A stretch of DNA of 49,842 nucleotides from Cytophagales bacterium. Its GTDB lineage: Bacteria > Bacteroidota > Bacteroidia > Cytophagales > UBA9547. This document shows, piece by piece, positions 7,166 to 47,163 of the stretch. The stretch spans positions 1 to 49,842 of the forward strand of contig JAYVIX010000200.1 in NCBI GenBank assembly GCA_043769845.1, given 5' to 3'. How positions within the stretch are numbered: position 1 is the first letter of the stretch; the number at the start of each line of letters is the position of its first letter. The notes beneath the pieces are model-generated. The model was not told the DNA's origin, did not search any database, and was given only the letters and a program-made list of their open reading frames with translations. The position numbers and the translations under genes are program-made.

Positions 7166-8026
7166 TCAACAAAATCCCAAACTAATCACCCCTGCCAGCA
7201 TGAGCCATTTGCAAAAAGCACTCAAATTCGAAAAGTCTTTTTGTTTATCCGCTTTCACAATCTGAACGCCCAAATACAAAAGCAGAAATACAATACCCCA
7301 GTATATGACAGCTTCTTGAGGTTGTTGAATAGCTTGATAAATGACAAGAGCGATAAAAACAACTAGAATCACAATCAGCAAAATCTTGGTTTTTCGCATT
7401 CCCCACACGATCGGAAAAGTCTTGCAGCCATATGCAGCATCGCCTTTGGTATCTTCCAAGTCTTTTATAATCTCGCGCAACAAACTGATACAGAACGCAA
7501 AAATGGAATACGAGTACACTAGCCGATTGTATTGACCAAGATAAACACCCACCGCCCACACCACCGCAGCTGATAGTGCCGAGATCAGAATATTGCCCAA
7601 AAGTGGCGTGCGTTTTAGAATATTAGAATAAAACCAAAGTAAAAAAGCGCAAACACCAAAGAGCAATGCCACACGCCAACTGAGCGTAAAACCAATCGCG
7701 ATGGCCAAAAAATTAAGTGCAGAATGAAAAATAATGGCTTGCCTGCGCGAAACTACTCGACCGATCACGATACGTTCGGGCTTGTTGACTAGGTCGATTT
7801 TGATGTCGTAATAATCATTGATCACATAACCAGCAGCTGCAATCAGGATCGTACCTAGCGACAATACCAAAAGGCCAAAAGGAGGAATGAGGAGCGAATA
7901 ATCAGACCATTTATTTTTCGCCAGAAAAAAATAGACCGCATATTGGGTAAAAAATACAATGACAAGATTTGGCCATCGCACCAATTTAATCATCGATCGC
8001 ATCCATTCTTGCTTATTTTTATTCAT
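7166..8026 (-). CDS. UbiA family prenyltransferase
   Basis: Multi-TM protein with the motif NDYYDIKIDLVNKP (NDxxDxxxD) and a second Asp-rich patch KDLEDTKGD. The track start at 8047 is TTG. I chose the first ATG (8026), but the start remains uncertain. Confidence 0.75.
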   Translation of the reverse strand: MNKNKQEWMRSMIKLVRWPNLVIVFFTQYAVYFFLAKNKWSDYSLLIPPFGLLVLSLGTILIAAAGYVINDYYDIKIDLVNKPERIVIGRVVSRRQAIIFHSALNFLAIAIGFTLSWRVALLFGVCAFLLWFYSNILKRTPLLGNILISALSAAVVWAVGVYLGQYNRLVYSYSIFAFCISLLREIIKDLEDTKGDAAYGCKTFPIVWGMRKTKILLIVILVVFIALVIYQAIQQPQEAVIYWGIVFLLLYLGVQIVKADKQKDFSNLSAFCKWLMLAGVISLGFC

Positions 8027-8114
8027 GTAAATAATCAAATATTGCAATCAAATATACAAAAAGACACTAGGCGTTTCGGCTTTAAGACACATTTCCTACC
8101 TTCACCACAAAGTA

Positions 8115-8951
8115 GTGGATTTGGCTAGAGTTTGGAAAATTGCAGGAATTTGTGTGCTGATTTATAGCAGTATTCTAATCGCTTTGGGCGCAATTTGGTA
8201 TCAAGGGATTTTTAAAGGACATTTTACTTTTTTTGACGATTCGCTCGAATGGCTCCAAATGGACAAGGTGGGGCATTTTTTTGCGGCTTTTCAGATCAGT
8301 CGTTGGTTTATTCAAATCCTACGCTGGCAAAAAGTAAGCGCAGCTGAAGCACAAAAAGTAGGCATCTGGGGAGGAATAATTTACCTGTGCCCGGTCGAAA
8401 TCTTAGATGGTTTTTCGGAGGCTTATGGTTTTTCGTGGACGGACATTTTGGCCAATTGTCTCGGAACGGGTTTTCTATGGCTTCAATTACAGGCTTTCAA
8501 AAAAATGAATTTTTTGCCAAAATTTTCCTTTCAACTAAGTCCGTTTGCTGTCATGCGCAAGGAAATGCTCGGGAGTCATCTTTTTTCCCAATTAATCAAA
8601 GATTACAATGGACAAACGTATTGGCTCAGTTTCAGTCCAAATGTATTTTTTAAGAAAAAATATTTCCCTGAATGGCTCCAGATTTCCATCGGTTACGGAG
8701 CCGATAATTTACTTGGCGGTCACGACAATGTATGGAAAATTGATGGACAAAATAATGTATTAGCTGATTATTCGCATCTCGCTCGAACACGTCAATTCTT
8801 TATTTCCTTTGACATTAGCCTTCAGTACAAAGAATATTCCAACCCTTTTATGAAGTTTGTACGCCTCGCACTTTCTTGTCTGAAATTTCCATTCCCTGCA
8901 ATCGGATTCAGTGCCAACAAAGGGTTCGAATTCAAATGGTTGGGAATTTAG
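8115..8951 (+). CDS. Membrane protein, possibly DUF2279 family
   Basis: 278 aa with a GTG start, an N-terminal TM helix and a DKVGHFF motif. The family assignment is from memory only. Confidence 0.45.
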   Translation: MDLARVWKIAGICVLIYSSILIALGAIWYQGIFKGHFTFFDDSLEWLQMDKVGHFFAAFQISRWFIQILRWQKVSAAEAQKVGIWGGIIYLCPVEILDGFSEAYGFSWTDILANCLGTGFLWLQLQAFKKMNFLPKFSFQLSPFAVMRKEMLGSHLFSQLIKDYNGQTYWLSFSPNVFFKKKYFPEWLQISIGYGADNLLGGHDNVWKIDGQNNVLADYSHLARTRQFFISFDISLQYKEYSNPFMKFVRLALSCLKFPFPAIGFSANKGFEFKWLGI

Positions 8952-8952
8952 A

Positions 8953-8990
8953 TAGTTGTTAGTAGCTAGTTAACTAACTACTAACAACTA
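8953..8990. repeat. 38-bp near-perfect palindrome between convergent genes; likely a bidirectional terminator
   Basis: TAGTTGTTAGTAG (8953-8965) is the reverse complement of CTACTAACAACTA (8978-8990). The inner TAGTTAACTA is self-complementary. The last 3 nt are the stop codon of the minus-strand gene. Confidence 0.75.
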
Positions 8991-9842
8991 ATCTTGTTTT
9001 TGCTCAGGAGTTTCTTCGGAAAGAGTCGGTTTTTGTTCTGTTTTTTTGCCTGTGGTATCTTTTGATTTTGAACCTTCGCCATTTGCAGAACCAAAGACTA
9101 ATGGCGGACCTTCGTATTTGGCTCTACGTTTTCGGATTGGGTGAAAAGTGTATTGCAACTTCAGATTGACATTGATATATCTGTCGTTCCCTTTGGTTTT
9201 CAATTTATTAACTCCATCAAGGTGGTCGGTGAACGTAAATCGGGCAGCCAATTCACCTAAAACGGAAAAATATTTATTGAGATAAAGTTCTATACCCAAT
9301 GCAGCTGGTATTACTGGCGTGACTTGTGCAGAAGTCTTTTTTTCGTAATTATATTTGAAATAGGTGTAAGTATAATCAAGCGTTGGCACCACATAGGCCA
9401 TTCCTAGGCCAAGTACCAAATAAGGGCGAATACGTTGTGGCTTTTGTTTCAGGTCATGTTTATAAAAAATCTTACGATCAACCAAGTTGAAACGCCCAAA
9501 TGCCATCACTTCATAGGCTTTGGATGTGAATGAAATAGATCCTGTTTTTCCAAATCCAGCCGTTTGTTTAAATGCCAAATAGCTCACTTCGCCACCAAAA
9601 TAAATCCTAGTCCACACTTTATAACTCACCGTGAGGCTTAGTCCAGGACTCAGTTTAGGACCAGGCAAACGATCCAAATCGCCCGAATAGCCACAGTTTA
9701 TCCCGCCCACTGCCACACTCACTGGCCCACGGTAATAATACGAACCAAAAAGAGTAGAATATTCGATTTGCTTTTTCTTCTGAGCCAAGGCGAAAGTTCC
9801 TAACAAAAGCCCAATCGAAAGAATGATTATTTTTCTAAACAC
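8988..9842 (-). CDS. Outer-membrane beta-barrel protein, paralogue of 10610..11677
   Basis: The track ORF (to 10058) overlaps comF and lacks a signal peptide at its start. The in-frame GTG at 9842 gives (M)FRKIIILSIGLLLGTFALAQKKKQIEYS..., which aligns with the paralogue's N-terminus. Shared blocks include YYYRGP, RIRPYL/RIRPFL and KLQYTFHPIRKRRAKY. Confidence 0.7.
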   Translation of the reverse strand: MFRKIIILSIGLLLGTFALAQKKKQIEYSTLFGSYYYRGPVSVAVGGINCGYSGDLDRLPGPKLSPGLSLTVSYKVWTRIYFGGEVSYLAFKQTAGFGKTGSISFTSKAYEVMAFGRFNLVDRKIFYKHDLKQKPQRIRPYLVLGLGMAYVVPTLDYTYTYFKYNYEKKTSAQVTPVIPAALGIELYLNKYFSVLGELAARFTFTDHLDGVNKLKTKGNDRYINVNLKLQYTFHPIRKRRAKYEGPPLVFGSANGEGSKSKDTTGKKTEQKPTLSEETPEQKQD

Positions 9843-9901
9843 CTCTAAAAGATTTAAAAATGAACACTTTATTTCTCTTACGCACAAAAAAAAGAGTTGG
9901 A

Positions 9902-10576
9902 TTAAGCCACTGCCAAACTCAGCACAGTAATTTGTTCCACACCAGCATTTAGCAAACATTGACAACAAGCCTCTAGTGTTGCACCTGTCGTGACTACATC
10001 GTCTACAATGGCTACATGCTTGCCACGCAAATCCGTGCCAGATGCTAAAGTGAAACAATCTTGCATGTTTTCCAAACGAGCAAAACGTCCTTTTTTAGTT
10101 TGCGAAATTGCTTCTTTTGATTTGACGAGCAAAGTAGCATCCAGTTTGATTTCTAATTGTTTGGCCAAACCAATAGCAATGGCTTCTGCCTGATTATAAC
10201 CTCTTGATTTCAAACGTTTTGAATGCAATGGAACGGGCAAAATGAGATCAATTTTATTTATTAATAATTTTTCATTTACAAAAATGCCAAATATTTCGCC
10301 CATATAAACTCCCAATTCCTGATTGTCTTTATATTTCAGTTCGTGCAGGATTTTTTGCGCTTTTCCTAATTTATTGAATTTCAAATACCCATAAGCCTTT
10401 TCAATTTTCACCCTGCCTACAAGTTTTCGAAGTGCCGATTCGTCATTCGTTTCCAATACAGGTAGTTCCAAACAACAAGAGCCACAAATATGTGGCTCTT
10501 GTTCATTCAATGCTTTTTCGCAACAAACGCATGTTTTCGGAAAAAGTAAATCAATTAAATAGTTGAGCATCAGCAT
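9902..10576 (-). CDS. comF: ComF family phosphoribosyltransferase-domain protein
   Basis: 224 aa. N-terminal Cys pairs (CVCC...CGSCC) and the PRTase motif VAIVDDVVTTGATL. Confidence 0.85.
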   Translation of the reverse strand: MLMLNYLIDLLFPKTCVCCEKALNEQEPHICGSCCLELPVLETNDESALRKLVGRVKIEKAYGYLKFNKLGKAQKILHELKYKDNQELGVYMGEIFGIFVNEKLLINKIDLILPVPLHSKRLKSRGYNQAEAIAIGLAKQLEIKLDATLLVKSKEAISQTKKGRFARLENMQDCFTLASGTDLRGKHVAIVDDVVTTGATLEACCQCLLNAGVEQITVLSLAVA

Positions 10577-10609
10577 TTTGTTCCCTAAAACCTAATACCC
10601 CAAACCTCG

Positions 10610-11677
10610 TTACCAACCGCTAGGAACTTCTTCTTCCTTTTTCTTTTTGGCTGGTTGTGTTTCCTTTTTCTTTGGTTTAGAGCTTTCTTCCCATTCTTTT
10701 TGCTCTTTTTCTTCTTGAAGTTTTTTCTTCTCTTCGTCAGTCAACTCTTTTGGTTTATTGTCGACAGGAGGCGCAGTTATTTGTCCAGAACCATCACCCG
10801 CTGGAGCTGCAGAAGAATCAGATGGCGCTGCTGGAGGGGCAATTTCGCCTGGAGGAAGTATTGGAGCGTTCAATGTGCTGTCTTTAGGAGCAGAGCTACC
10901 ACCGTCACCATTGGTCGGAGCGCCATATCCGGCTGGTGGTGCCACATATTTCGCTCTTCTCTTTCTTAATGGATGAAAGGTGTATTGCAATTTGAACGTG
11001 CCAGTGAAATAAGAATCTTTGCCAGAAGTATTCAATTTGTTGATTCCATCAAATGCATCGGTCAAGGCAAAACGATAGCCAAATTCGGTAATCAATGAAA
11101 AACGTTTATTGAGGTAAAAAGCCAAGCCTAATGAAGCAGGAAGTACAATGGCGATATTGGTCGTTTTGGCTACTTCGTATTTTTTGAAAAAATTAGAATC
11201 GCTCACTGCCACTTTGGGGTCAAAATAAGCAGCCCCAATTCCAAGTGTCAAGAATGGACGAATACGATGTGGGCGTTTGTTGATATCGTTTTTGAAATGG
11301 ATTCTTCTATCTAAGAAGTCGAAACGACCATAGCCGATCAATTCATAAATATTGGTAGAGAAGGAAATTTTACCGCTCGTATCTCTCACTTCGCTACCGA
11401 TGGTGTAGCTATTCAGTTCGGCACCAAAATAGGTTTTAGGCCAAACTTTGTAGTTGACTCCAAGATTGAATCCAGGAGCTAGTTTTGGATTAGGCATAAA
11501 ACCCAGATCACCCATATAACCGGCAGCATTCACCCCCAATGTCAGGTTGATTGGCCCGCGGTAATAGTACGAATCAAAAAAGCCTGAATATTCTACTTTC
11601 TTTTGTTTTTGAGCCAAACCTAGCACATTCAATAAAAGCAAAAATGCAATCGAAACGAAAATTGATTTTTTCAACAC
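10610..11677 (-). CDS. Outer-membrane beta-barrel protein with a long low-complexity C-terminal tail
   Basis: 355 aa. Signal peptide, a barrel region homologous to 8988..9842, then about 115 aa rich in Pro/Ala/Ser/Gly followed by Lys/Glu (…EEKKKLQEEKEQKEWEESSKPKKKETQPAKKKKEEE…). Confidence 0.75.
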   Translation of the reverse strand: MLKKSIFVSIAFLLLLNVLGLAQKQKKVEYSGFFDSYYYRGPINLTLGVNAAGYMGDLGFMPNPKLAPGFNLGVNYKVWPKTYFGAELNSYTIGSEVRDTSGKISFSTNIYELIGYGRFDFLDRRIHFKNDINKRPHRIRPFLTLGIGAAYFDPKVAVSDSNFFKKYEVAKTTNIAIVLPASLGLAFYLNKRFSLITEFGYRFALTDAFDGINKLNTSGKDSYFTGTFKLQYTFHPLRKRRAKYVAPPAGYGAPTNGDGGSSAPKDSTLNAPILPPGEIAPPAAPSDSSAAPAGDGSGQITAPPVDNKPKELTDEEKKKLQEEKEQKEWEESSKPKKKETQPAKKKKEEEVPSGW

Positions 11678-11800
11678 CTTAAATTGTATTTATAAAAAAC
11701 AAAATTAGCTTTTTTCCTGATTTAGTTCTTCTAGAATGTGATTTTTAGTGAGACGATTAACATTAATAATCTTAAAAAGAGCATTCTGAACTATTTTTAT

Positions 11801-12118
11801 TTACTGAATATGAGAAATAAGTTGAATAAGCTCATTTTCTGAAATTGTTTCTTCTTCTGATTTGTCAAAAATAGAAAGCAAGTAGACCGTCTCTTGAACT
11901 ACTTTTACACATGTTATAATTCTTCCACCACCTCGTTTGCCTTTTCCTTTCGAGGTAATTGAAAGTCTTATTTTGAAACAATTATTTCCTAAAAGCGTGC
12001 CTGACAATGGGTTATTGCTTAAATCAGTAGCAAGTTGTGCGATTTCTGATTTTTAAAGAGGGATATTTTTTACTAATCTTTTGAATTTCGAATCAAAAGG
12101 GGGCAATCGTGAGAACAC
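11801..12118 (-). pseudogene. RelE/HigB-like (GKGKxGG type) type II toxin, reading frame interrupted
   Basis: Reading from the GTG at 12118, which overlaps the antitoxin stop (TAGTG), gives VFSRLPPFDSKFKRLVKNIPL*KSEIAQLATDLSNNPLSGTLLGNNCFKIRLSITSKGKGKRGGGRIITCVKVVQETVYLLSIFDKSEEETISENEL... The in-frame TAA is at 12055-12053. An alternative frame across the break reads KKYPSLK. Confidence 0.65.
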
Positions 12119-12324
12119 TATAATTCATCCAATAACTCTTGAATAGGCCTTGCTTTACTTTTGCCCGAAAGCACCAAATTCATTTCTTTTACCGAATTGG
12201 CTATTTCGTTGGTTAATTCTGAGTTTGTATTTTGAAGCGGAGTGGCTTTTACAAACGTGAAATTCTTCAACAATTCCAAAACGAAATCTACTTTATGGTC
12301 TTTTATGTCAAGAAGTATTTTCAT
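12118..12324 (-). CDS. Putative antitoxin of the adjacent RelE/HigB-like toxin
   Basis: 68-aa ORF immediately upstream of the toxin, with a 1-nt stop/start overlap. The locus is AT-rich and I recognised no named domain. Confidence 0.5.
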   Translation of the reverse strand: MKILLDIKDHKVDFVLELLKNFTFVKATPLQNTNSELTNEIANSVKEMNLVLSGKSKARPIQELLDEL

Positions 12325-12342
12325 GTTTTCTTAGTTTTAAAA

Positions 12343-12380
12343 AGTTCAACGTTCAAAGAAATCCCTTTGAACGTTGAACT
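12343..12380 (-). terminator. Rho-independent terminator of the aminotransferase gene
   Basis: Perfect 16-bp stem AGTTCAACGTTCAAAG / CTTTGAACGTTGAACT with a 6-nt loop. On the minus strand a TTTTT run follows. Confidence 0.8.
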
Positions 12381-12387
12381 TGAGACT

Positions 12388-13605
12388 TTAAACCAATTTA
12401 GCCAAAGCAGCTTTGATATTTGTCATCGCTTTAACTAGGCTTTCGTCCGAAGCTGCAAAGGATATACGGATATAACCCGGAACTCCAAACGCATCGCCAG
12501 GAACTGTAGAAACGTGTGCTTCGCTCAAGATATACAGACACAAATCCATCGCTTCCTTGATTTTAGCGCCTTCGGCTGTTGTTTTACCAAGGTAAGCCGA
12601 AATGTCTGGGAAGAAATAAAATGCACCCATTGGAAGATTTGTCTTGATACCTGGGATGTCTTTCAACAAACCAAAAACCAAATCTCTTCTGCGAAGGAAT
12701 GCTTTGTTCATTTCGTTGGTTGTATCCATTGTGCCGCTAATTGCAGCCACTGCCGCCCATTGTGCGATCGAGCAAGTAGCCGAAGTTACTTGGCCTTGCA
12801 ATTTGTCGCAAGCATCGGCTAGCCATTTCGGAGCGGCCATATAGCCAATTCTCCAACCTGTCATGGCATATCCTTTTGAAACACCATTTACAAGCACTGT
12901 ACGCTCTTGCATTCCTGCAAACGAAGCGATACTCACATGTTTTTCGCCAAAGTTGATAAATTCGTAGATTTCATCTGCCAAAGCGTAGATGTTGTCATGT
13001 TTCACCAATTCGTCTGCGATTTCTTTCAATTCTTTCTCGCTGAAAACTGAACCAGTTGGGTTGCAAGGCGAAGAGAACATCACCACTTTAGTACGTGGCG
13101 TGATTGCTGCACGCAATTGCTCAATAGTAGCTTTGAAATTATTTTCAATGCTTCCTTCGATCAAAACAGCTTTTCCTTCAGCCAATTTTACCAATTCAGA
13201 ATAACTCACCCAATATGGCGAGTAGATAATTACTTCATCACCAGGGTTAAGCAAACAAAGCAAAGCATTTGCAATTGATTGTTTGGCACCAGTTGAAACT
13301 ACAATATTTTCAGGCTTGTATTCCAGGCCGTTGTCGCGTTTTAATTTGGCTACTACCGCATTTTTCAATTCAGGAATACCTGCTACTGGTGTGTAGAACG
13401 TTTTTCCGTCATCAATTGCTCTCTTGGCAGCGTCTTTGATGTGTTGTGGAGTTTGGAAATCGGGCTCGCCAAAACTTAGGTTAACTACCGATACACCTTG
13501 TGCGCTTAGTTCGCGCGCCTTCTTAGCCATTCCGATAGTGGCCGATTCTTCTAAGGCATTGATACGGTCGGAGAGTACTTTCAACGATTCTGCTACTGCG
13601 CTCAT
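12388..13605 (-). CDS. Pyridoxal-phosphate-dependent class I aminotransferase (aspartate aminotransferase-like)
   Basis: 405 aa with the PLP-lysine motif SKGYAMTGWRIGY, plus NPTG and ADEIYE blocks. Confidence 0.85.
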   Translation of the reverse strand: MSAVAESLKVLSDRINALEESATIGMAKKARELSAQGVSVVNLSFGEPDFQTPQHIKDAAKRAIDDGKTFYTPVAGIPELKNAVVAKLKRDNGLEYKPENIVVSTGAKQSIANALLCLLNPGDEVIIYSPYWVSYSELVKLAEGKAVLIEGSIENNFKATIEQLRAAITPRTKVVMFSSPCNPTGSVFSEKELKEIADELVKHDNIYALADEIYEFINFGEKHVSIASFAGMQERTVLVNGVSKGYAMTGWRIGYMAAPKWLADACDKLQGQVTSATCSIAQWAAVAAISGTMDTTNEMNKAFLRRRDLVFGLLKDIPGIKTNLPMGAFYFFPDISAYLGKTTAEGAKIKEAMDLCLYILSEAHVSTVPGDAFGVPGYIRISFAASDESLVKAMTNIKAALAKLV

Positions 13606-13754
13606 CTGGGGTTATTTTTAGAAACTTGCAAAACTACTAATTAACTGAGAAGTGTACGCTTGAATTTCCTCATTTTTCTGCGAAATATAAATCATTCAGC
13701 CCAAAGAGGTTTAAATGTTACCTTTGTATTGGGTTATTTCAAATCTATTTTTCG

Positions 13755-14282
13755 ATGCATTTTTTGAAAGTCATTTTCAGCAACAAAGCCTTGTCGCTTG
13801 CCTTGTTGCTCGGTAGCGTGCAAGTAGTGTGCGATTTGGCAGGAAGCGTCACTTTTTTTCCAATCGTACATTATGGGATGTATTCGCAAATCGAACCAAG
13901 ACAGAAAAGCTATGTAACGTACGAATTGGAGATAAATGGCCAAAAACTGGATGCGCTTGATTATAGAATACACCTTTGGGAGGCTCTTTTTAATCCGCTC
14001 AGAATTCGTGAAAAAAACAGGCATTGCAATGATTTCGAAGAAGATAAAAATCTGATGAAAAAGGGATTTAATAGCCTGAATTTTAACCACCTATATCCGT
14101 TTTTAGAACCTGCGATTACAAATAAAATAGAAAAAAACAGTACTTTTTCTCATCGTTACAAAATCTATTTGGCGCATATTTTGAAGGAGCCAATTTTCAG
14201 CATGAAAGTGTACGAAAGCGAATATGGCTACGACTATGCCCGCTATTTTTTGATCCGTAAAACCTTGCTAGTTCATGAATAG
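13755..14282 (+). CDS. Hypothetical protein
   Basis: 175-aa ORF with a hydrophobic N-terminus. Its stop overlaps the start of the next ORF (ATGAATAG). I recognised no family. Confidence 0.45.
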   Translation: MHFLKVIFSNKALSLALLLGSVQVVCDLAGSVTFFPIVHYGMYSQIEPRQKSYVTYELEINGQKLDALDYRIHLWEALFNPLRIREKNRHCNDFEEDKNLMKKGFNSLNFNHLYPFLEPAITNKIEKNSTFSHRYKIYLAHILKEPIFSMKVYESEYGYDYARYFLIRKTLLVHE

Positions 14283-15114
14283 ACTGCGAAATATGAGTTT
14301 GAAGCATGTTTATATGCTCAATTTTTTGGTGTTCTATTATGTGGTGTTTGCATTTGGGTACGCCAATCATTTTTTCTTGACACAGTTCCAGCCCGTTTCG
14401 ATTAGTCACAATCGCGACCTTGTAGAACTGGCTCTAATCGCAACACATTTGCCTCATTTTCTGATTTCACATCCAAGTTCGTTTTTGATATTGGATAGTT
14501 TGGTTTTGATATTCCCGATTGGAATTACGATTATTTACATGAAACATAATTCATTTAATAAAGCGTTAGGAATATCGTTCATGCTCCTTCTAAGTCTTTA
14601 TTTTTTACTTCAGAGCATTCTGAAACAAGTGAGTTTGCAGCCGTATGTGCCGTATGTGATTTTGTCAGCGATGTTTTTTGCGAATAAGAAGGTGCATTTT
14701 CAATGGGTGATAAAAATGGCTCGTTGGTCGTTCGTTTATGCACTTGGCACCGCTGGCGTATGGAAAGTAGCGCGAGGTGCGGTTTTTGTGCCCGATGAAT
14801 TCAGTAATATTCTGATCGCACAGCATTCCAATTATCTGACCAATAATTGCAACGCATTTTTGTGTCAAGTTCATTTTTACTTGATCGAACATACGGCTTT
14901 TTCGCAGACTTTATATGTATTGGCTACTTTGTTGGAATTGGCTTTTTTAGTGAGCTTTTTTACTAAAAAATACGACAAATGGCTAGTCGTTTTGGTAATC
15001 ACATTTGTTTTCTTCGACCAATTGGTCATGCGGATTCCTTATTGGACAATTTTGGTTTCGGCTATTCCACTTTGGTTCTCGGCCGAAATGGAACGTTCGC
15101 ATTCCGACAGATAG
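14275..15114 (+). CDS. Hypothetical polytopic membrane protein
   Basis: 279 aa with about 7-8 hydrophobic segments. It is translationally coupled to 13755..14282. Confidence 0.5.
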   Translation: MNRLRNMSLKHVYMLNFLVFYYVVFAFGYANHFFLTQFQPVSISHNRDLVELALIATHLPHFLISHPSSFLILDSLVLIFPIGITIIYMKHNSFNKALGISFMLLLSLYFLLQSILKQVSLQPYVPYVILSAMFFANKKVHFQWVIKMARWSFVYALGTAGVWKVARGAVFVPDEFSNILIAQHSNYLTNNCNAFLCQVHFYLIEHTAFSQTLYVLATLLELAFLVSFFTKKYDKWLVVLVITFVFFDQLVMRIPYWTILVSAIPLWFSAEMERSHSDR

Positions 15115-15343
15115 CCAATAGTCGTTTTCTAACAAAGAGAATAATTCAAGTGGAAATTTGTATTTTAAAATACGAAGGCCTATTATTGTCCTACAATTGC
15201 GGATGATTTTTAAGGAATCACGTTCCCGCACTCCTTTTCAGTAAAATTCTTGTTTGCCAATCTTTTTTATATTTTAGGCTGAACCTGAACACATAATCGT
15301 TTTCTACTGCTCTCATTCATCATACAATCCCGTACCATAACAC

Positions 15344-40994: not shown

Positions 40995-41582
40995 ATGGAT
41001 TCTTCTTTGATTTCCACCGTACTTTTGCCACTTGCTCTGGCTATTATCATGTTGGGGCTCGGACTTGCGCTCACACTCAATGATTTCAAACGAATTATCA
41101 TTTCACCTAAAGCCGTTTTTGTAGGTTCGATCACACAATTGGTCGTATTGCCTGCGCTTGGGATGTTGATAAAATCGAAATTTGAAAGTTTTGCCAACAA
41201 AGCACAATCGCCTGTAAAAATCCTGTCGGCTGTATTTTTGGTCTTAATTATAGTAACCGCTATTCTGAAAGAGAAATCAAACATTGCTGAATTCTTTGCA
41301 GTAGCAGGCCCAGCGGTACTATTGCTCAATTTGTCGGGAATGACCATCGGCTATTTTCTGCCTTTGATTTTCAAACTAAATTCAAGCCAACAACTCACAA
41401 TCAGTATCGAAACGAGCATCCAAAACGGCACACTGGCCATCGGGATTGCAAGCAGCCCGATGATGCTAAACAATTCGACCATGGCCATTCCGGCAGCCGT
41501 TTATAGTATTATCATGTTTGTCACGGCAGGCATATTTATTTCAATCCTGAATAAAAGACGAAAAAACAATGCATCGGTTTAA
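40995..41582 (+). pseudogene. Bile acid:sodium symporter (BASS) family gene with an apparent in-frame internal deletion
   Basis: Only 195 aa, versus about 290-320 aa for the family. The N-terminus (LPLALAIIMLGLGLALTLNDFKRIIISPKAV…QLVVLPALG) and C-terminus (…TISIETSIQNGTLAIGIA…AIPAAVYSIIM) look BASS-like. The central CPGG…SN…GD.ALS core is missing. Confidence 0.5.
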
Positions 41583-41600
41583 TGATTCAATTAGCAATAA

Positions 41601-42098
41601 ATTGATTTCTCGAAGTCACCAAAAATCCTAATCAATGGCGCAACTGGTTCAATTGGTACTGCATGTGTGCAGTTGGCACACTTTTATGGCGCAGAAATTA
41701 CGGCCATATGCGATACTCAAGTTGTGCAATTGGTAAAATTGTTGGGTGCTGACGTTGTGATTGATTATACCAAAGAAGATTTCACCAAGATTGCAAAAGA
41801 GTATGATTTTGTGCTGGATACGGTCGGGAAAAGTTCGTTCTTCAAATGCAAACACCTGCTGAAACGGAAAGGAGTTTATATTTCGACTGAACTTGGCTAC
41901 TTGTCGCAAAACATATTTCTGGCATTGTTCACTCCCCTATTTTGTGGCAAAAAAGTAAAGTTTCCTATTCCTCCAGACAGTAAAGAAGACATTATTCGAT
42001 TCAAAGAATTGATTGAATCAGGAAACTACAAAGCCGTGATAGACAAAACATATCCTCTGGAGTAAATTGTGGAAGCAACAAAGTATGTAATTAAGTAA
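41601..42098 (+). pseudogene. Fragment of an MDR-superfamily NAD(P)-dependent oxidoreductase (quinone oxidoreductase/ADH-like)
   Basis: The frame opens right after a stop at 41598-41600 with …KILINGATGSIGTACVQLAHFYGAEITAIC…, a Rossmann GxGxxG fold with no catalytic N-domain. An in-frame TAA at 42063 is followed by IVEATKYVIK*, the expected continuation. The fragment is therefore 5'-truncated, nonsense-interrupted and 3'-truncated. Confidence 0.65.
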
Positions 42099-42449
42099 CT
42101 GCGAACCAACCCGTTCTATCGACATGGAAATGATTCTTTTATTCAATTCTGTTTTATGTTGAAGGTAAAAATTCGTTTCTTCAACATTAAAATGCCCACA
42201 TAATAAACCAATTGTGAAGGAACGAAAACTGATTTCTTTTTGAAAGGTTGCATGAATCACTTCTCTCCTTTTGTTTGATTCCAATTTCTCCCAATGTATT
42301 TTTTTATCAATAAGTTGAATTTGAAAAAAACTGATTAACAACTCATTTTGCATTTTCAGAATAGGTCGCAGCGTTAGGTTTTGAAACTTCTCCATATCGG
42401 TATCAGCTTCTTTTTCAAAAGCGATAATTGGTCTTGTGGTATCTTTCAT
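42018..42449 (-). CDS. Hypothetical protein; its 3' end reads into the antisense strand of the dehydrogenase fragment
   Basis: Likely start is MKDTTRPIIAFEKEADTDMEKFQNLTLRPILKMQNELL… (ATG at 42449). The last roughly 27 codons overlap 42018-42098 antisense to the ADH remnant, which suggests a chimeric or truncated C-terminus. Confidence 0.4.
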   Translation of the reverse strand: MKDTTRPIIAFEKEADTDMEKFQNLTLRPILKMQNELLISFFQIQLIDKKIHWEKLESNKRREVIHATFQKEISFRSFTIGLLCGHFNVEETNFYLQHKTELNKRIISMSIERVGSQLLNYILCCFHNLLQRICFVYHGFVVS

Positions 42450-42509
42450 CTCTTCACAACCGAGCAAGTGGTATATTTGTTGCAGACAAACAAGGTTTAT
42501 CCTACCATC

Positions 42510-42728
42510 ATGGAACTCATCACCTTTAGAACCTTCAACAATCCGATTGAGGCACATCTGCTCAGAACCAAACTGGAAAGTGAAGGCATTCCATCTTTCT
42601 TGTTTGACGAGAATATGATGGCATTTAATCCCTTCTATAATTCGGCCTTGGGTGGCGTAAAACTAAAAATCAACAAGTTGGATTTGGAGAAAGTGGAGGA
42701 GATATTGAGGGATACGGAAAGCGAATAG
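42510..42728 (+). CDS. DUF2007 (putative signal-transducing) domain protein
   Basis: MELITFRTFNNPIEAHLLRTKLESEGIPSFLFDENMMAFNPFYNSALGGVKLKI is the typical DUF2007 pattern. I moved the start to the ATG at 42510. Confidence 0.65.
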   Translation: MELITFRTFNNPIEAHLLRTKLESEGIPSFLFDENMMAFNPFYNSALGGVKLKINKLDLEKVEEILRDTESE

Positions 42729-42813
42729 TTTTTTGGATAAACATTACCATCTACCTTTAAAATTTTGGTAACTATTCCACTAAAATTTCAACTGTAATAA
42801 CAAATAGATTTTG

Positions 42814-44574
42814 TCACAGGGAGTCTATTATTTCTTTTAGCTTGTTAATATAGTTATCGTATTCTGTCTTAATTGATTCTTTTGTTAGTGTTTCTGCAAG
42901 ATGATTTTTAAATGACTGTTTCTTTTCTTTGTCTTTATTAACTGCTAACTCGATATTGCTTATTGCACTTTTGGTTATATCATATTTATAATTTTGATTA
43001 CCTGTTTTTTTTATTTGAGTTTCAATATGTTCTGGATTGACAAAATCTTCCATAGTTAGCATTCCGTCACATACATCGGCATAAGAGACCCAGATATCTT
43101 TGTATTCAGGATAGTTTTTGCAAAAATCAGCTTTCTTATTTTTGGACGTTTCATCAGAATCTGCCACTATTACAAATTTCTTATTAGCTAATAAGAGTAT
43201 TTGAACCAGAGTTTCTGCCCCTGAAATGCCTCCTAAATAAACCATACCATATTCTTTGAATAATTTATCCTTGTTTTGAAAAGTACAGTATTTGTTAAAA
43301 AGTAACTTATCAAGATACCCTTCAAAAATAATATTTTTAGGTTGCAAACATTCAAATATACTTGAACCAACAGCTCTTCTCAATAATTCATCTGTACTAA
43401 AAGGTGCATTTTTATTTTCTTTTCTTATTGTGGTTATATCATCTACTTTCTCTACTATGTAATGCCTTTCTAAATTGGAAGTGTCAATCATATATTGACA
43501 GTGGGTAGAGTAGATTATTTTTGATTTCTTACTCATTTCCAATAACTCGTCACGTAAATACTGTGCACTTGTAGGATATAAGCTTTGGTCAGGTTCGTCT
43601 ATCAGAATAATATCCTTTTCATGAATCCTATTGGCTCTTGACTGAGTTGAAAGCATCAATAAAATACTAATAAACTTTTTGAATCCTTCACTTCGGTCTT
43701 CAAATGAATACTTAGCCTTATTTGCTACTTTTATCAATATTTCATCTCCGTTTGGTTGTAATTGAATAGATGTATTTTTAAAATCCTTCCAAATTTTATG
43801 AAAAGTTGATGTTAAAGTTTTTGATACTTGTTCAAGCAAATTTGCATAATCACCATCTTGAGAAAGTGCATCTGCAAATTCTTTTTTAATGTTGTCCCTT
43901 TTGCAAAGGAAAAAGATATTTTCTAACCCTTTTATACTTTCTGGCTCAGAAATAAAACTTGCAATGTTTACACTACTTGGCAACAAGTAATTGTCACTGT
44001 ATTCCCAGTAGTGGCAATTGTACTTGTTTTCGCTGAAAAGTTCTTTTACAATTTCAAATATTGATAAGCTTAAATTAAATTCAGTTGCATTCGCTAAAGG
44101 TTCTAATGATAAAACATTACCATTTAAATAAAGAGGAATAACTATTTTAAAATCATCTTTATTATATCTCCAATAAGAAAAATGGGCGTTTTTTTCATCA
44201 GCAATATCAATTTGAATTATAAGATTATAAAAAACAGCTTTGATATACGATCCAATATTTTGGCTATTCTTAAATTTAATTAGATTGGTGTTGCTATATT
44301 TTTTTTGAAATCTTTGGAGAATTTGCTTAAAATCATCTTCACTTAGCTTGTAAATTGCCCTTACGAAATATTCATCGATTTTTTCATTGTCAATTCGTTT
44401 TCTTTTGTCTTTGTTACTAACAGTATACTTTCCGAACACAGCAGCTATTGCCTTTAGTACGTTGCTTTTTCCTGCCTCATTTTTCCCTAACAGGACAATA
44501 CAATTATGTTCAAAATGTATATTTTCATCTTTTATTGATCTAAAGTTTTTAATAGCTACTCTTATTAATTCCAT
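42814..44574 (-). CDS. OLD-family nuclease (ABC-type ATPase + TOPRIM), stand-alone
   Basis: 586 aa. N-terminus IKNFRSIKD…; Walker A LLGKNEAGKSNVL; signature-like RSEGFKKFISILLML; Walker B DIILIDEPDQSLYP; H-loop IYSTHCQ. The TOPRIM Glu is in NIIFEGYLDKLLF and the DxD in FVIVADSDETS. The gene is very AT-rich compared with its neighbours. Confidence 0.75.
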   Translation of the reverse strand: MELIRVAIKNFRSIKDENIHFEHNCIVLLGKNEAGKSNVLKAIAAVFGKYTVSNKDKRKRIDNEKIDEYFVRAIYKLSEDDFKQILQRFQKKYSNTNLIKFKNSQNIGSYIKAVFYNLIIQIDIADEKNAHFSYWRYNKDDFKIVIPLYLNGNVLSLEPLANATEFNLSLSIFEIVKELFSENKYNCHYWEYSDNYLLPSSVNIASFISEPESIKGLENIFFLCKRDNIKKEFADALSQDGDYANLLEQVSKTLTSTFHKIWKDFKNTSIQLQPNGDEILIKVANKAKYSFEDRSEGFKKFISILLMLSTQSRANRIHEKDIILIDEPDQSLYPTSAQYLRDELLEMSKKSKIIYSTHCQYMIDTSNLERHYIVEKVDDITTIRKENKNAPFSTDELLRRAVGSSIFECLQPKNIIFEGYLDKLLFNKYCTFQNKDKLFKEYGMVYLGGISGAETLVQILLLANKKFVIVADSDETSKNKKADFCKNYPEYKDIWVSYADVCDGMLTMEDFVNPEHIETQIKKTGNQNYKYDITKSAISNIELAVNKDKEKKQSFKNHLAETLTKESIKTEYDNYINKLKEIIDSL

Positions 44575-44601
44575 TTCGATTTTATTTGTAATGTCCTATT
44601 T

Positions 44602-44609
44602 CAAACCTA
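44602..44609 (-). promoter_or_regulatory. Candidate Bacteroidota sigma-A -7 box (TAnnTTTG) upstream of the OLD-like gene
   Basis: The minus strand reads TAGGTTTG about 28-35 nt upstream of the ATG at 44574. I found no clean -33 TTTG element. Confidence 0.25.
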
Positions 44610-44734
44610 CAAATAAATTCTTTAAAACTAATTAATACATTCACGTGTACTTTAATAAATAACCCAGTTAGCCGCAAGGCATCCGTGAATAGGCAATGAT
44701 TGGTCAGTCAAACTTTAAATGAAGGTCGTGAAAT

Positions 44735-44767
44735 ACCGCTGACAGGACTCAAAACCCTGTCAGCGGT
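44735..44767 (-). terminator. Hairpin downstream of the TonB-dependent receptor gene
   Basis: Perfect 12-bp stem ACCGCTGACAGG / CCTGTCAGCGGT with a 9-nt loop, 6 nt after the stop. Only a weak T-run follows on the minus strand. Confidence 0.6.
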
Positions 44768-44772
44768 AAGCT

Positions 44773-47163
44773 TTAAAACTGCACCCTATACCCCAAGTAA
44801 GGATACAAGCCCATTTGGTAATAGGTTCTTATTTCTTGCTTGTCGTTGTCCCAACTTCTGTCCATGATGTTTTGGGTGTTCAGCAAGTTGTCGGCTGCGA
44901 TGAAGATGTTGTGCGTGCTTTTGGCTTTGTTGATATTGTACGACACCTTCAAGTCGGTACGGAAGTAGCTGGGTAACTGCTTCTCGTAGGCACGGGCAAA
45001 ATCGTACACCGCCTTGTCTTGTTTGATAGATTCTTTGGTATCAATCTCGATGTACCTGCGTCCACCTGAATGCGTCAACTTCATGTCTACCGAAATCACT
45101 CTTCGGTTCTTGTCGTCCAAGTGGAACTCTTTGCCAGCCAATACATTGAATACGTGCCCAATATTGAAAGCAGTGTTGCGTTCCTTGCCGTCAGGTGTTT
45201 TGTAGCGCGAATTGAGTAGCGAGAGGTTGGCAAGGAAATAGAAGTTGTGGGCAAAGCTTTTTTCCAAGCTCAATTCTACCCCATAGTTCTGTCCCGTCCC
45301 CGTGTTTTTCAAGCTATCCGCCACATAGAAACCAAAGTCGCCCCCAGTATTCAATGGCGAATACACAGTAGCAAAGTCACGCCTCGACTGGCTCAACGGA
45401 ACATTGTATAAGTGTTGGTAATAGGCTTCCGCTTTCAGTCTCACGTTTTGCGAAAGGCTGCGATGGTAGCCCGCTACCACATGCAAGGCACGAGTCAAAT
45501 CCACGTTCTTGTTCGACTGTTTGTATCGCGCGGTGGTGCTGTCGTAAAATTGGTAGTCGTAAATAAAGAGCGACTGCGTTTGGCTATGCAAGCCGGAAGC
45601 CAAAGTAAACCGTTGACGTTCGCCCAATTCATAGGCCATCGAGATACGTGGTTCTAGGGCTTGGGTATTGTTCAGGAGAAAGCGTTGGTAGTACAAACCA
45701 GCATTGGCAATGATGCGGTCGCTGATGCGGTATTGCCAGTGGGTAAACGTTTGTAGCAATCCTGCATTGGCCTTGTTGTTCAGTCCTTCCACACGAGCGC
45801 TATCGTATTCATCGTAATAATTCTCAAATATTTTATAGTAGATGTTGCGATAGGTTCCGCCCACTTTCACCATATGACGCGAGTTGAAACGGTGCGTAAG
45901 CGTATAGTTACCAATGTGTTGCCCTTCGGTATTGGTGTGGTCGTAATCTTCGATTTTAGAATCGTCTTTGTAAATGGTGGCACTTTTTATACCCACTCTG
46001 TTGGCCGAAGTAGAAAGCACCAGTTTGCCAGTAGTGTTCTTCGAAAATTGGTAGGTATGCGAAGCTCCTGTGGCAAACATTTCAGATTTGAAGTCATCGT
46101 CCTCGTAAGCAATGTTTCGTTTATTGTTCTCGTTTGGATATTTCTCGTGGATAAAAATCTTGCTCGTTCCGCCTATTCCCCAAAGGGTAAATGTTCCAGC
46201 TTTGTCGGTAGGAAGATTGATCTTGAAAGTGGCATCGTGAAAAGAAGGAATGCCCGACACGCCAAAGTTCACGCCCAATTTATTCATCACCTCAAATGAG
46301 AGGAAACGATAGCTCACCAAATACGAGCTTCCTTTTTTCTTCGAAATAGGACCTTCTGTTCCAAATTCGATGCCGTTTAGTCCTGCTTGGAAAATATTTT
46401 CACGTTTTTGGTTGTTTCCGTTGCGCAATTTCACATCAAACACGGCAGCCGTTTTGTTTCCATACTCGGCAGGAAATGCGCCTGTGATGAAGTCGGAATT
46501 AGCTAAAAGGTTGTTGTTCAAAATACTGAAAACACCGCCTGTAGCACCCGTAGATGTGAAATGGTTGGGATTGGGAATATCTACTCCTTCCAATCGCCAG
46601 AGCACACCAGTAGGCGAATTGCCTCGCACGATGATGTCGTTGCGCGAATCGCCCGCACTGGCCACACCCGCATAGTTGGCCGCCATGCGACTAGGGTCTT
46701 GCCTCGAACCCGCAAAACGGTTGATGTCTTCCGTCCGCAAGTTAGTGACACTGGACTGGATGAGATTGTTGTTCGCCTGAGAAGAGTTTTTCTTCGCCAC
46801 CACCACTACTTCATCGCTCGTGATTATTTCTTCTTCCATGCTGATGTTGAGAATGGTTTCTTTTCCCGAATTGACCGTCACATTGGGAATCAGAATTTCC
46901 TTGTAGCCCATGAACGAAATCTTGATAGTATGTCGACCTACAGGAACTTTTCGCAGGGTGTAATTGCCGTTGGTATCGGCCATGGTGGCGATAACAGGAT
47001 CCACATCTACCACCTGTACCACAGCACCGGGCATGGAAGTTTGTACCACTTTGTCCAACACCGTACCACGCACGGTTTGGGTCAGCGGCTCAGAATTGTG
47101 TTGCGCTTTTGCGCTGAAAAAAAGGCATGGCAATGCCAGGAGAAGGAAAATGTGCTTCTTCAT
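44773..47163 (-). CDS. TonB-dependent receptor with an N-terminal CarboxypepD_reg domain and no STN domain
   Basis: 796 aa. Signal peptide, then TVRGTVLD…TNGNYTLRKVPVGRHTIKISFMGY (CarboxypepD_reg). The plug region shows RFAGSRQDPSRMAANYAGV…IIVRGNSP. The barrel ends in …LGYRVQF. Confidence 0.85.
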   Translation of the reverse strand: MKKHIFLLLALPCLFFSAKAQHNSEPLTQTVRGTVLDKVVQTSMPGAVVQVVDVDPVIATMADTNGNYTLRKVPVGRHTIKISFMGYKEILIPNVTVNSGKETILNISMEEEIITSDEVVVVAKKNSSQANNNLIQSSVTNLRTEDINRFAGSRQDPSRMAANYAGVASAGDSRNDIIVRGNSPTGVLWRLEGVDIPNPNHFTSTGATGGVFSILNNNLLANSDFITGAFPAEYGNKTAAVFDVKLRNGNNQKRENIFQAGLNGIEFGTEGPISKKKGSSYLVSYRFLSFEVMNKLGVNFGVSGIPSFHDATFKINLPTDKAGTFTLWGIGGTSKIFIHEKYPNENNKRNIAYEDDDFKSEMFATGASHTYQFSKNTTGKLVLSTSANRVGIKSATIYKDDSKIEDYDHTNTEGQHIGNYTLTHRFNSRHMVKVGGTYRNIYYKIFENYYDEYDSARVEGLNNKANAGLLQTFTHWQYRISDRIIANAGLYYQRFLLNNTQALEPRISMAYELGERQRFTLASGLHSQTQSLFIYDYQFYDSTTARYKQSNKNVDLTRALHVVAGYHRSLSQNVRLKAEAYYQHLYNVPLSQSRRDFATVYSPLNTGGDFGFYVADSLKNTGTGQNYGVELSLEKSFAHNFYFLANLSLLNSRYKTPDGKERNTAFNIGHVFNVLAGKEFHLDDKNRRVISVDMKLTHSGGRRYIEIDTKESIKQDKAVYDFARAYEKQLPSYFRTDLKVSYNINKAKSTHNIFIAADNLLNTQNIMDRSWDNDKQEIRTYYQMGLYPYLGYRVQF

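Follow-up and report, generated by a model that had tools for sequence, protein, structure and literature searches.

The DNA analyzed was a stretch of 49,842 nucleotides from a Cytophagales bacterium (contig JAYVIX010000200.1 of assembly GCA_043769845.1), in the following termed the window. It carries a gene for a protein of 586 amino acids (aa) at positions 42814-44574 of the minus strand, with the stop codon at 42814-42816. The gene lies in an insert of approximately 2.0 kb (42721-44737) with a GC content of 0.291, which was delimited by blastn against the closest relative genome, L056. We found the protein to be an ABC ATPase joined to a TOPRIM nuclease, i.e., a member of the OLD (overcoming lysogenisation defect) family. 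A first-pass annotation made from the nucleotide letters had described a stand-alone OLD gene on an AT-rich islet at 42729-44772, and this interval agrees with the insert mapped against L056.

All six protein motifs quoted in the first-pass annotation were recovered in the translation of the 586-aa open reading frame (ORF). The ABC-type ATPase region comprises aa 1-385 (43420-44574, minus strand) and contains GKNEAGKS (30-37), RSEGFKKF (294-301), IILIDEPDQ (322-330), and YSTHCQ (355-360). These motifs supply the Walker A residue K36, a signature-like R294-S295-x-G297, the Walker B residues D326-E327, and the H-loop residue H358, all of which were invariant in 50 of 50 homologues. Pfam searches with the whole protein matched AAA_15 (aa 1-363, E = 3.6e-24) and SMC_N (aa 3-374, E = 4.3e-12), with AAA_21 and AAA_23 also being significant, and the fold matches of the region (Foldseek) included Rad50, SMC, and PtuA. 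Judged from its sequence, the N-terminal two thirds of the protein can be classified as a Rad50/SMC-type ABC ATPase. K36, D326-E327, and H358 aligned with K34, E276-E277, and H310 of the OLD protein from Thermus scotoductus (Ts OLD).

The TOPRIM core (aa 410-506; 43057-43347, minus strand) was placed from the alignment to Ts OLD, residue conservation, and an AlphaFold2 model. It carries the motifs IIFEGYLDK (415-423) and VIVADSDETS (468-477), and the model predicted an alternating order of strand 413-417, helix 420-432, strand 443-446, helix 450-462, strand 466-471, helix 475-487, and strand 495-497. A helical tail of about 80 residues (aa 507-586; 42817-43056, minus strand), placed from the model of the C-terminal region, its fold matches, and conservation, begins at T507-x-E509 and has K556 on its penultimate helix. 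In Ts OLD metal A is bound by E377/D431/D433 and metal B by D381/S478/E480 (Schiltz et al., PMC7049728). E418/D472/D474 of the window protein aligned with the former set and D422 with D381. The same study assigned K34, E276, H283, and H310 to the ATPase site of Ts OLD and identified a Lys/Arg of Class 1 as R487 in Ts OLD and K550 in P2 Old; mutating these residues abolishes the activity of Ts and P2 OLD (PMC7049728). E418, D422, D472, D474, T507, E509, and K556 were all present in the window protein and invariant in 50 of 50 homologues. T507 and E509 are candidate metal B ligands, and K556 is a candidate for the catalytic Lys. Since the invariant residues of the window protein map onto residues that are essential for activity in Ts and P2 OLD, the catalytic set appears to be intact.

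Family membership was supported by both sequence and fold comparison. The best match in the PDB by sequence was Ts OLD (6p74; phmmer E = 2e-10, family profile E = 7.8e-13), with an alignment that spans Walker B, the H-loop, the TOPRIM Glu, and the DxD motif. The PADLOC model "Old" matched with E = 2e-23. The AlphaFold2 model, for which 50 homologues were used, was confident, with a predicted local distance difference test score (pLDDT) of 89.3 and a predicted TM-score of 0.78, and its best full-length Foldseek matches were all OLD-family proteins, i.e., GajA from B. cereus at the top (8sm3, 4.7e-16), Ts OLD (6p74, 7.8e-16), and the retron-Eco8 OLD. The OLD architecture proposed in the first-pass annotation was thus borne out by structure prediction. 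The same holds for its reading of the C-terminal third as an OLD-type TOPRIM domain, which rests on the 6p74 alignments, on the 14 of 50 family members that matched PF20469 at E < 0.01, and on the C-terminal model. Submitted to Pfam in isolation, the C-terminus gave sub-threshold matches to PF24395 (OLD-like_TOPRIM_1) with E = 0.0026 and to PF20469 (OLD-like_TOPRIM) with E = 0.0056. Profile comparison to P2 Old, the founding member, by hhalign gave a probability of 88% (E = 2.7e-6) and paired EG..E (VEGKTE) and DxD (ADCD) of P2 with EG..D and DxD of the family, and from this alignment P2 Old appears to be a distant relative of the window protein. The window protein is therefore a new member of an already known and abundant family, which public databases already label OLD.

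Genomic context and length both assign the window gene to Class 1, the stand-alone OLD genes. The length cut-off used for this class is about 500-600 aa (PMC12392090), which includes the 586 aa found here, and the neighbors are a receptor gene with its own terminator and a convergent DUF2007 gene. The window gene resembles the Class 1 genes in being a single gene for an ABC ATPase with a TOPRIM domain, without helicase, reverse transcriptase, or split partner. P2 Old is also 586 aa long and is approximately 25% identical to the window protein over the aligned part. Ts OLD, in contrast, lacks the helical tail of about 80 aa.

The first-pass annotation had likened the gene to the class-1 stand-alone proteins; this stands for context and length, but the C-terminal region is more like Class 2. 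A separate model of aa 388-586 (pLDDT 89.3) matched only crystal structures of OLD C-terminal regions at E ≤ 0.001 (6nk8 and 6njw/6njv/6njx), which include those of B. pseudomallei (6NK8) and X. campestris (6NJW). Matches to the Class 2 C-terminal regions had E-values from 7.5e-5 to 1e-3 and TM-scores of 0.45-0.50, compared to E = 0.11 for Ts OLD. The layout of E418/D422, D472/D474, and the candidate residues T507-x-E509 and K556 parallels that of E400/E404, D455/D457, T506/E508, and K562 in the OLD protein of B. pseudomallei (Bp OLD). The helical domain of Bp OLD starts with T506/E508 and has K562 on alpha5H (PMC6755086). The modeled C-terminal region, TOPRIM and tail together, thus resembles the solved Class 2 structures more than the Class 1 structure. 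The window gene differs from Class 2 in that no UvrD/PcrA/Rep-like GajB is encoded next to it or recurs among the families listed for the neighbors of its homologues. The GajA models of PADLOC, moreover, align mostly to the N-terminal part and are outscored by "Old". Insert 3 of Class 2 is probably absent because the spacing from DxD to TxE is 33 residues versus 49.

Membership was rejected for each of the other OLD classes considered. For Gabija, the OLD gene is followed by an 85-bp spacer and the convergent DUF2007 gene, with no GajB. For Class 3 (retron Eco8-type), the flanking ORFs contained no reverse transcriptase domain, and a search with Rfam over 41500-45500 gave nothing that reached threshold, retron RNA families included; the NCBIfam model retron_eff_Eco8 scored 31 bits against a cut-off of 250 bits. 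For Class 4 (PARIS), the C-terminal 198 aa matched neither DUF4435 (Pfam, E ≤ 10) nor any PADLOC model, and the match of the N-terminus to AriA is that of a generic ATPase. None of the flanking ORFs was found to encode a UvrD-like helicase, a reverse transcriptase, or a DUF4435 protein, in line with the claim of the first-pass annotation that the gene has no partner.

The insert differs from its surroundings in base composition. In sliding windows of 400 nt the GC content was 0.26-0.31 over 42600-44599 compared to 0.42-0.51 on the receptor side (45-50% for the receptor gene), which agrees with the AT-rich islet noted before. The OLD gene itself has a GC content of 0.291 against 0.399 for the rest of the window, and a GC content at third codon positions of 0.237 compared to 0.565 for the receptor gene and 0.417 for dnaB. 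Homology to L056 was found to end at window position 44738 and to resume at 42720, the 3' end of the DUF2007 gene (blastn), and the islet was therefore set to 42721-44737 with OLD as its sole gene. The receptor gene and the DUF2007 gene are both present in L056, where the slot occupied by OLD holds a Peptidase_M43 gene. The cluster of sigma factor, FecR, 615-aa protein, and receptor genes was kept in four uncultured relatives (receptor identity 69-83%), none of which has an OLD gene downstream of the receptor, and each of which has different content there. The OLD gene is thus not conserved at the locus, and the slot is a variable region with different cargo in different lineages.

Absence of the insert from the four relatives, a GC content of 0.29 versus 0.40, and the patchy distribution over phyla argue for horizontal acquisition. 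The first-pass annotation had taken the low GC content as the sign of such an event. The comparison to relatives supports this, but low GC is also a trait of the whole family: in 36 of 36 loci the homologue was more AT-rich than its flanks (GC 0.24-0.34 versus 0.30-0.55, mean difference -0.10). Such a composition is typical of genes from a mobile pool, and recent arrival is thus not the only thing that the low GC content can indicate.

No target-site duplication and no terminal direct or inverted repeats were found at the insert borders (42721/44737), and the non-coding flanks of the islet had no match in any homologous locus. The window contains no tRNA gene, and no integrase was present among the ORFs annotated there. 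In L056 the 3' coding portion of the DUF2007 gene is duplicated: a 70-bp copy (12588-12657), 88.6% identical to window 42622-42691, is located directly after the receptor gene and ahead of the Peptidase_M43 gene, and a tyrosine recombinase gene (L056 15789-16604) is found three genes beyond the latter.

The OLD gene has its own intergenic upstream region, as stated in the first-pass annotation. Intergenic DNA at 44575-44772 separates it from the receptor gene, and of this the part at 44575-44737 (minus strand) is islet-specific, with no counterpart in L056. A perfect hairpin with a 13-bp stem at 44734-44768 is the terminator of the receptor gene and lies between the receptor and OLD genes. A candidate Bacteroidetes-type -7 box, TAGGTTTG (consensus TAnnTTTG), was identified at 44602-44609 (minus strand), 35 nt before the OLD ATG. 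The background of this motif is 0.71 per kb per strand, and TAGGTTTG might possibly serve as the OLD promoter. A sigma-70 promoter scan was uninformative (14 sites versus 11.6 expected). Downstream, the islet-specific 85-bp spacer between the stop codons of OLD and the convergent DUF2007 gene (42729-42813, minus strand) contained no detectable intrinsic terminator.

The upstream neighbor on the same strand encodes a TonB-dependent receptor. Since this protein is 60% identical to one from Sporocytophaga, the host was placed near the Cytophagaceae. On the other side, the DUF2007 gene (42510-42728, 72 aa) is followed by a divergent ORF of 144 aa (42018-42452, minus strand), which gave no match in Pfam, PHROG, or PADLOC. 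The latter is 67% identical to a 124-aa gene of L056. Probably through loss of the original stop codon, it extends about 25 aa beyond the end of this orthologue and overlaps the dehydrogenase fragment described below. Both DUF2007 and the 144-aa ORF have orthologues in the OLD-less L056 and are therefore host genes and not partners of OLD. A longer ORF of 179 aa (42018-42557) was considered as a downstream partner and rejected: the real gene is probably that at 42018-42452, which has the L056 orthologue, and the DUF2007 gene intervenes on the opposite strand. Two decayed genes are located between dnaB and the 144-aa ORF, approximately 0.7 kb from the OLD gene. One is a 195-aa fragment of the SBF family (40995-41582) in which only profile positions 1-47 match, and the other preserves the 3' part of a gene for a zinc-type alcohol dehydrogenase or quinone reductase (41667-42065), the frame of which is open only from 41601 and which lacks the N-terminal domain. 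The first-pass annotation had placed the OLD gene next to decayed genes; the fragments are nearby, but DUF2007 and the 144-aa ORF intervene. The remaining genes of the window are housekeeping genes, including those for Rho, ProRS, glutamate synthase, NuoD, DnaB, and CcmF.

A search for homologues gave 422 proteins at E < 1e-5, the best of which were 55-68% identical to the window protein and 582-587 aa long, and the mean length of the family was 584 aa. For several of them, NCBI or JGI already uses the name "ATP-dependent endonuclease of the OLD family". In data with one genome per species the family was patchily distributed over Bacteroidota, Campylobacterota, Spirochaetota, Alpha- and Gammaproteobacteria, Elusimicrobia, Fibrobacterota, and Firmicutes. 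Phage or plasmid origin of the gene was considered and rejected, since only distant relatives were found in these sources. Among 50,697 phage records there was no close homologue and one match (24% identity over 48% of the query), and in the plasmid collection searched all matches were at most 25% identical. Remote viral relatives include phrog_4747 (E = 1.9e-23, full length) and, by fold, proteins of giant viruses labeled "ATP-dependent endonuclease". Searched with a profile, the C-terminal region matched only 427 representative clusters among 1.84 billion, and these include a sister group of about 620-650 aa that PADLOC calls "Old" and not GajA. The matches also include proteins of about 230-250 aa that consist almost entirely of the OLD C-terminal region (TOPRIM and tail), starting near residue 28, and that have essentially no PADLOC match (P0262, P0270, P0278, P0303, P0315-P0321, P0338, P0342, and P0353). 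These may derive from OLD systems that are split over two genes, or they may be fragments.

The genes next to the homologues were surveyed within a distance of two genes, which gave 123 neighbors and 25 families, i.e., all families matched by at least two neighbors. UvrD, reverse transcriptase, and DUF4435 were absent from the 25 families listed. The commonest neighbors were subunits of Type I restriction-modification (R-M) systems, with HsdS accounting for 10 of the 123 and the N-terminal domain of HsdR for 7. Within five genes, hsdM, hsdS, or hsdR was present in 12-14 of 40 other loci. The homologue was often located inside the hsd operon with gaps of 3-15 nt, in the orders hsdM-hsdS-OLD, hsdS-OLD-hsdR, and hsdR-OLD-hsdS-x-hsdM (L006 6939-11584; L015 7301-16033; L005 389-4266; L035/L037/L038/L041 about 7260-15250). 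Other neighbors were GmrSD, MmeI, an N4/N6 methylase, DUF6088/AbiEi, Schlafen/AlbA_2, RelA/SpoT, DUF4238, and a Cap4 nuclease, and none of these mixed neighbors was a constant partner. In seven Campylobacter loci (L028-L032, L040, and L043) the OLD homologue always followed nrdA, encoding the ribonucleotide reductase large subunit, with a gap of about 20 nt. The homologue in L040 is split into two ORFs (316 and 277 aa) and is probably a pseudogene. The homologues thus behave as genes of defense islands. Class 1 OLD genes have been described in a review as not being near other candidate defense genes (PMC10568477), whereas homologues of the window gene are often found inside R-M operons; their recurrent embedding in Type I R-M systems is at odds with the statement of the review. 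We found no paper in the literature search that links OLD genes to Type I R-M operons. If functional, the embedding would connect OLD nucleases with the monitoring of restriction systems.

Taken together, the window gene probably encodes an intact one-gene OLD enzyme of Class 1 that was acquired horizontally as cargo and most likely acts in defense against phages or other mobile elements. The data directly show the architecture of the protein, the conservation of its catalytic residues, the insertion of the gene without any partner, and the occurrence of homologues in a defense-island and R-M context. We infer the defense role, as well as the trigger and substrate considered below. Horizontal transfer would have brought OLD as one-gene cargo into the variable slot between the receptor and DUF2007 genes of a Cytophagaceae-like chromosome. 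In the protein, nucleotide binding and hydrolysis by the N-terminal Rad50/SMC-like ABC ATPase would gate the active site of the two-metal TOPRIM nuclease with its helical tail, and this site would cut double-stranded nucleic acid once an infection cue has been sensed. Both Ts OLD (PMC7049728) and Bp OLD (PMC6755086) are two-metal nucleases. The OLD protein of V. cholerae is a DNA nickase whose defense function needs the ATPase and is countered by a phage inhibitor (PMC12392090), while P2 OLD requires ATP hydrolysis for cutting both strands of tRNA anticodon stems after inhibition of RecBCD (PMC12445682). These two proteins and YbjD of E. coli (PMC13261556) are precedents for defense by a single OLD gene, and the statement in the first-pass annotation that targets and triggers are poorly defined is partly out of date in view of the three studies. 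Because the C-terminal region is Class 2/GajA-like, we lean slightly toward nicking or cleavage of DNA; by comparison to P2 OLD, cleavage of tRNA anticodon stems would be nearly as likely.

Several observations weigh against this interpretation. The whole-chain TM-scores of the model compared to solved OLD structures were only about 0.33, which we attribute to a differing orientation of the modeled domains, and the Pfam TOPRIM models scored below their gathering thresholds on the window protein. The D-loop position is occupied by an invariant Tyr333 where Ts and P2 OLD have His. Unlike in Ts and P2 OLD, no Lys or Arg follows seven residues after the metal B Glu, and the assignment of K556 is putative. 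The window contains no other defense gene, so this locus lends no support from a defense island. The anti-phage phenotypes of E. coli YbjD are independent of its TOPRIM domain (PMC13261556), and the archaeal OLD protein Cran1 is reported to have a role outside defense (PMC12796447). Given YbjD and Cran1, an OLD architecture does not guarantee nuclease-based defense.

The example of Cran1 shows that cellular roles exist among OLD-family proteins, and one could therefore ask whether the window protein is a housekeeping ATPase-nuclease for genome maintenance or the cell cycle, similar to RecF/Rad50 or Cran1, rather than a defense protein. The similarity of its N-terminus to Rad50, RecF, and SMC would fit such a role, as would the core genes that flank it. 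However, the gene is missing at this locus in four of four relatives, its composition is foreign, its distribution is patchy, and its homologues occur among restriction and Abi-type genes, which makes a housekeeping function very improbable. The chance that the protein is a fused PARIS-like system, in which an AriA ATPase and an AriB nuclease sense anti-restriction proteins and cut tRNA, seems smaller still and close to negligible. The top PADLOC match of the window protein was indeed the AriA model (E = 3.7e-26, all 373 profile positions covered), and sensing of anti-restriction proteins would fit the R-M association of the homologues. But the match to AriA is confined to the generic AAA_15-type ATPase at residues 1-363, whereas the C-terminus lacks an AriB match and its modeled fold matches OLD C-terminal regions, and relatives that share this C-terminal domain score best with the PADLOC model "Old".

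The association with hsd genes also raises the question of whether the window gene is an orphaned piece of a module linked to Type I R-M. PrrC is an anticodon nuclease whose gene is part of the EcoprrI Type Ic R-M operon. In its ancestral context OLD would work with or guard R-M as PrrC does EcoprrI, and the window copy, having moved without hsdM, hsdS, and hsdR, would be inactive, mis-regulated, or decaying. PrrC and the OLD protein share an ABC-ATPase-like N-terminus combined with a nuclease, and PrrC, as many homologues of the window gene, is encoded among hsd genes; its nuclease domain is however unrelated and not a TOPRIM domain, and R-M genes are missing from the surroundings of the window copy. 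The closest homologues in genomes were found in or near hsd genes (L006, 69% identity, hsdM-hsdS-OLD; L005, 64%, hsdS-OLD-hsdR; L007, 63%, GmrSD-OLD-..-hsdR), and the short gaps, the 12-14 of 40 loci, and the decayed genes near the window gene are all in keeping with an orphan. On the other hand, the window ORF is not truncated and retains all of the invariant residues, approximately two thirds of the loci lack hsd genes within five genes (including the seven Campylobacter loci with nrdA), and the neighbors are too heterogeneous to contain a fixed partner. We therefore regard an orphaned copy as improbable, and an intact enzyme that functions alone remains the preferred reading. A further, speculative proposal to which we give a little more weight, although it is still unlikely, is that the AT-rich clade of approximately 585-aa proteins is an unrecognized OLD subclass, either stand-alone or embedded in R-M operons and with a catalytic C-terminus of Class 2 type, in which the helical domain next to TOPRIM supplies the catalytic Lys. 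The subclass may have evolved as a second-line guard of Type I R-M operons that responds, in the manner of PrrC or PARIS, once anti-restriction proteins of a phage disable restriction, and it could also act as a portable one-gene cassette like the window copy.

Experimental work on stand-alone OLD proteins is limited to a few examples (those of P2 and V. cholerae, and YbjD of E. coli), none of which is from Bacteroidota. The clade described here is compact, highly conserved, and readily cloned as one gene, which would make it a convenient model for infection sensing and for the choice between DNA and tRNA as substrate. For the window itself, the analysis documents a clean horizontal insertion of one gene into a variable chromosomal slot. 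In another relative of the host, L057, a gene for an AAA_21/AAA_15-type ATPase of 461 aa (134-1519), for which no TOPRIM domain was noted, is located just upstream of the FecR/receptor cluster, and this suggests that the neighborhood of the receptor cluster attracts ATPase-type accessory genes.

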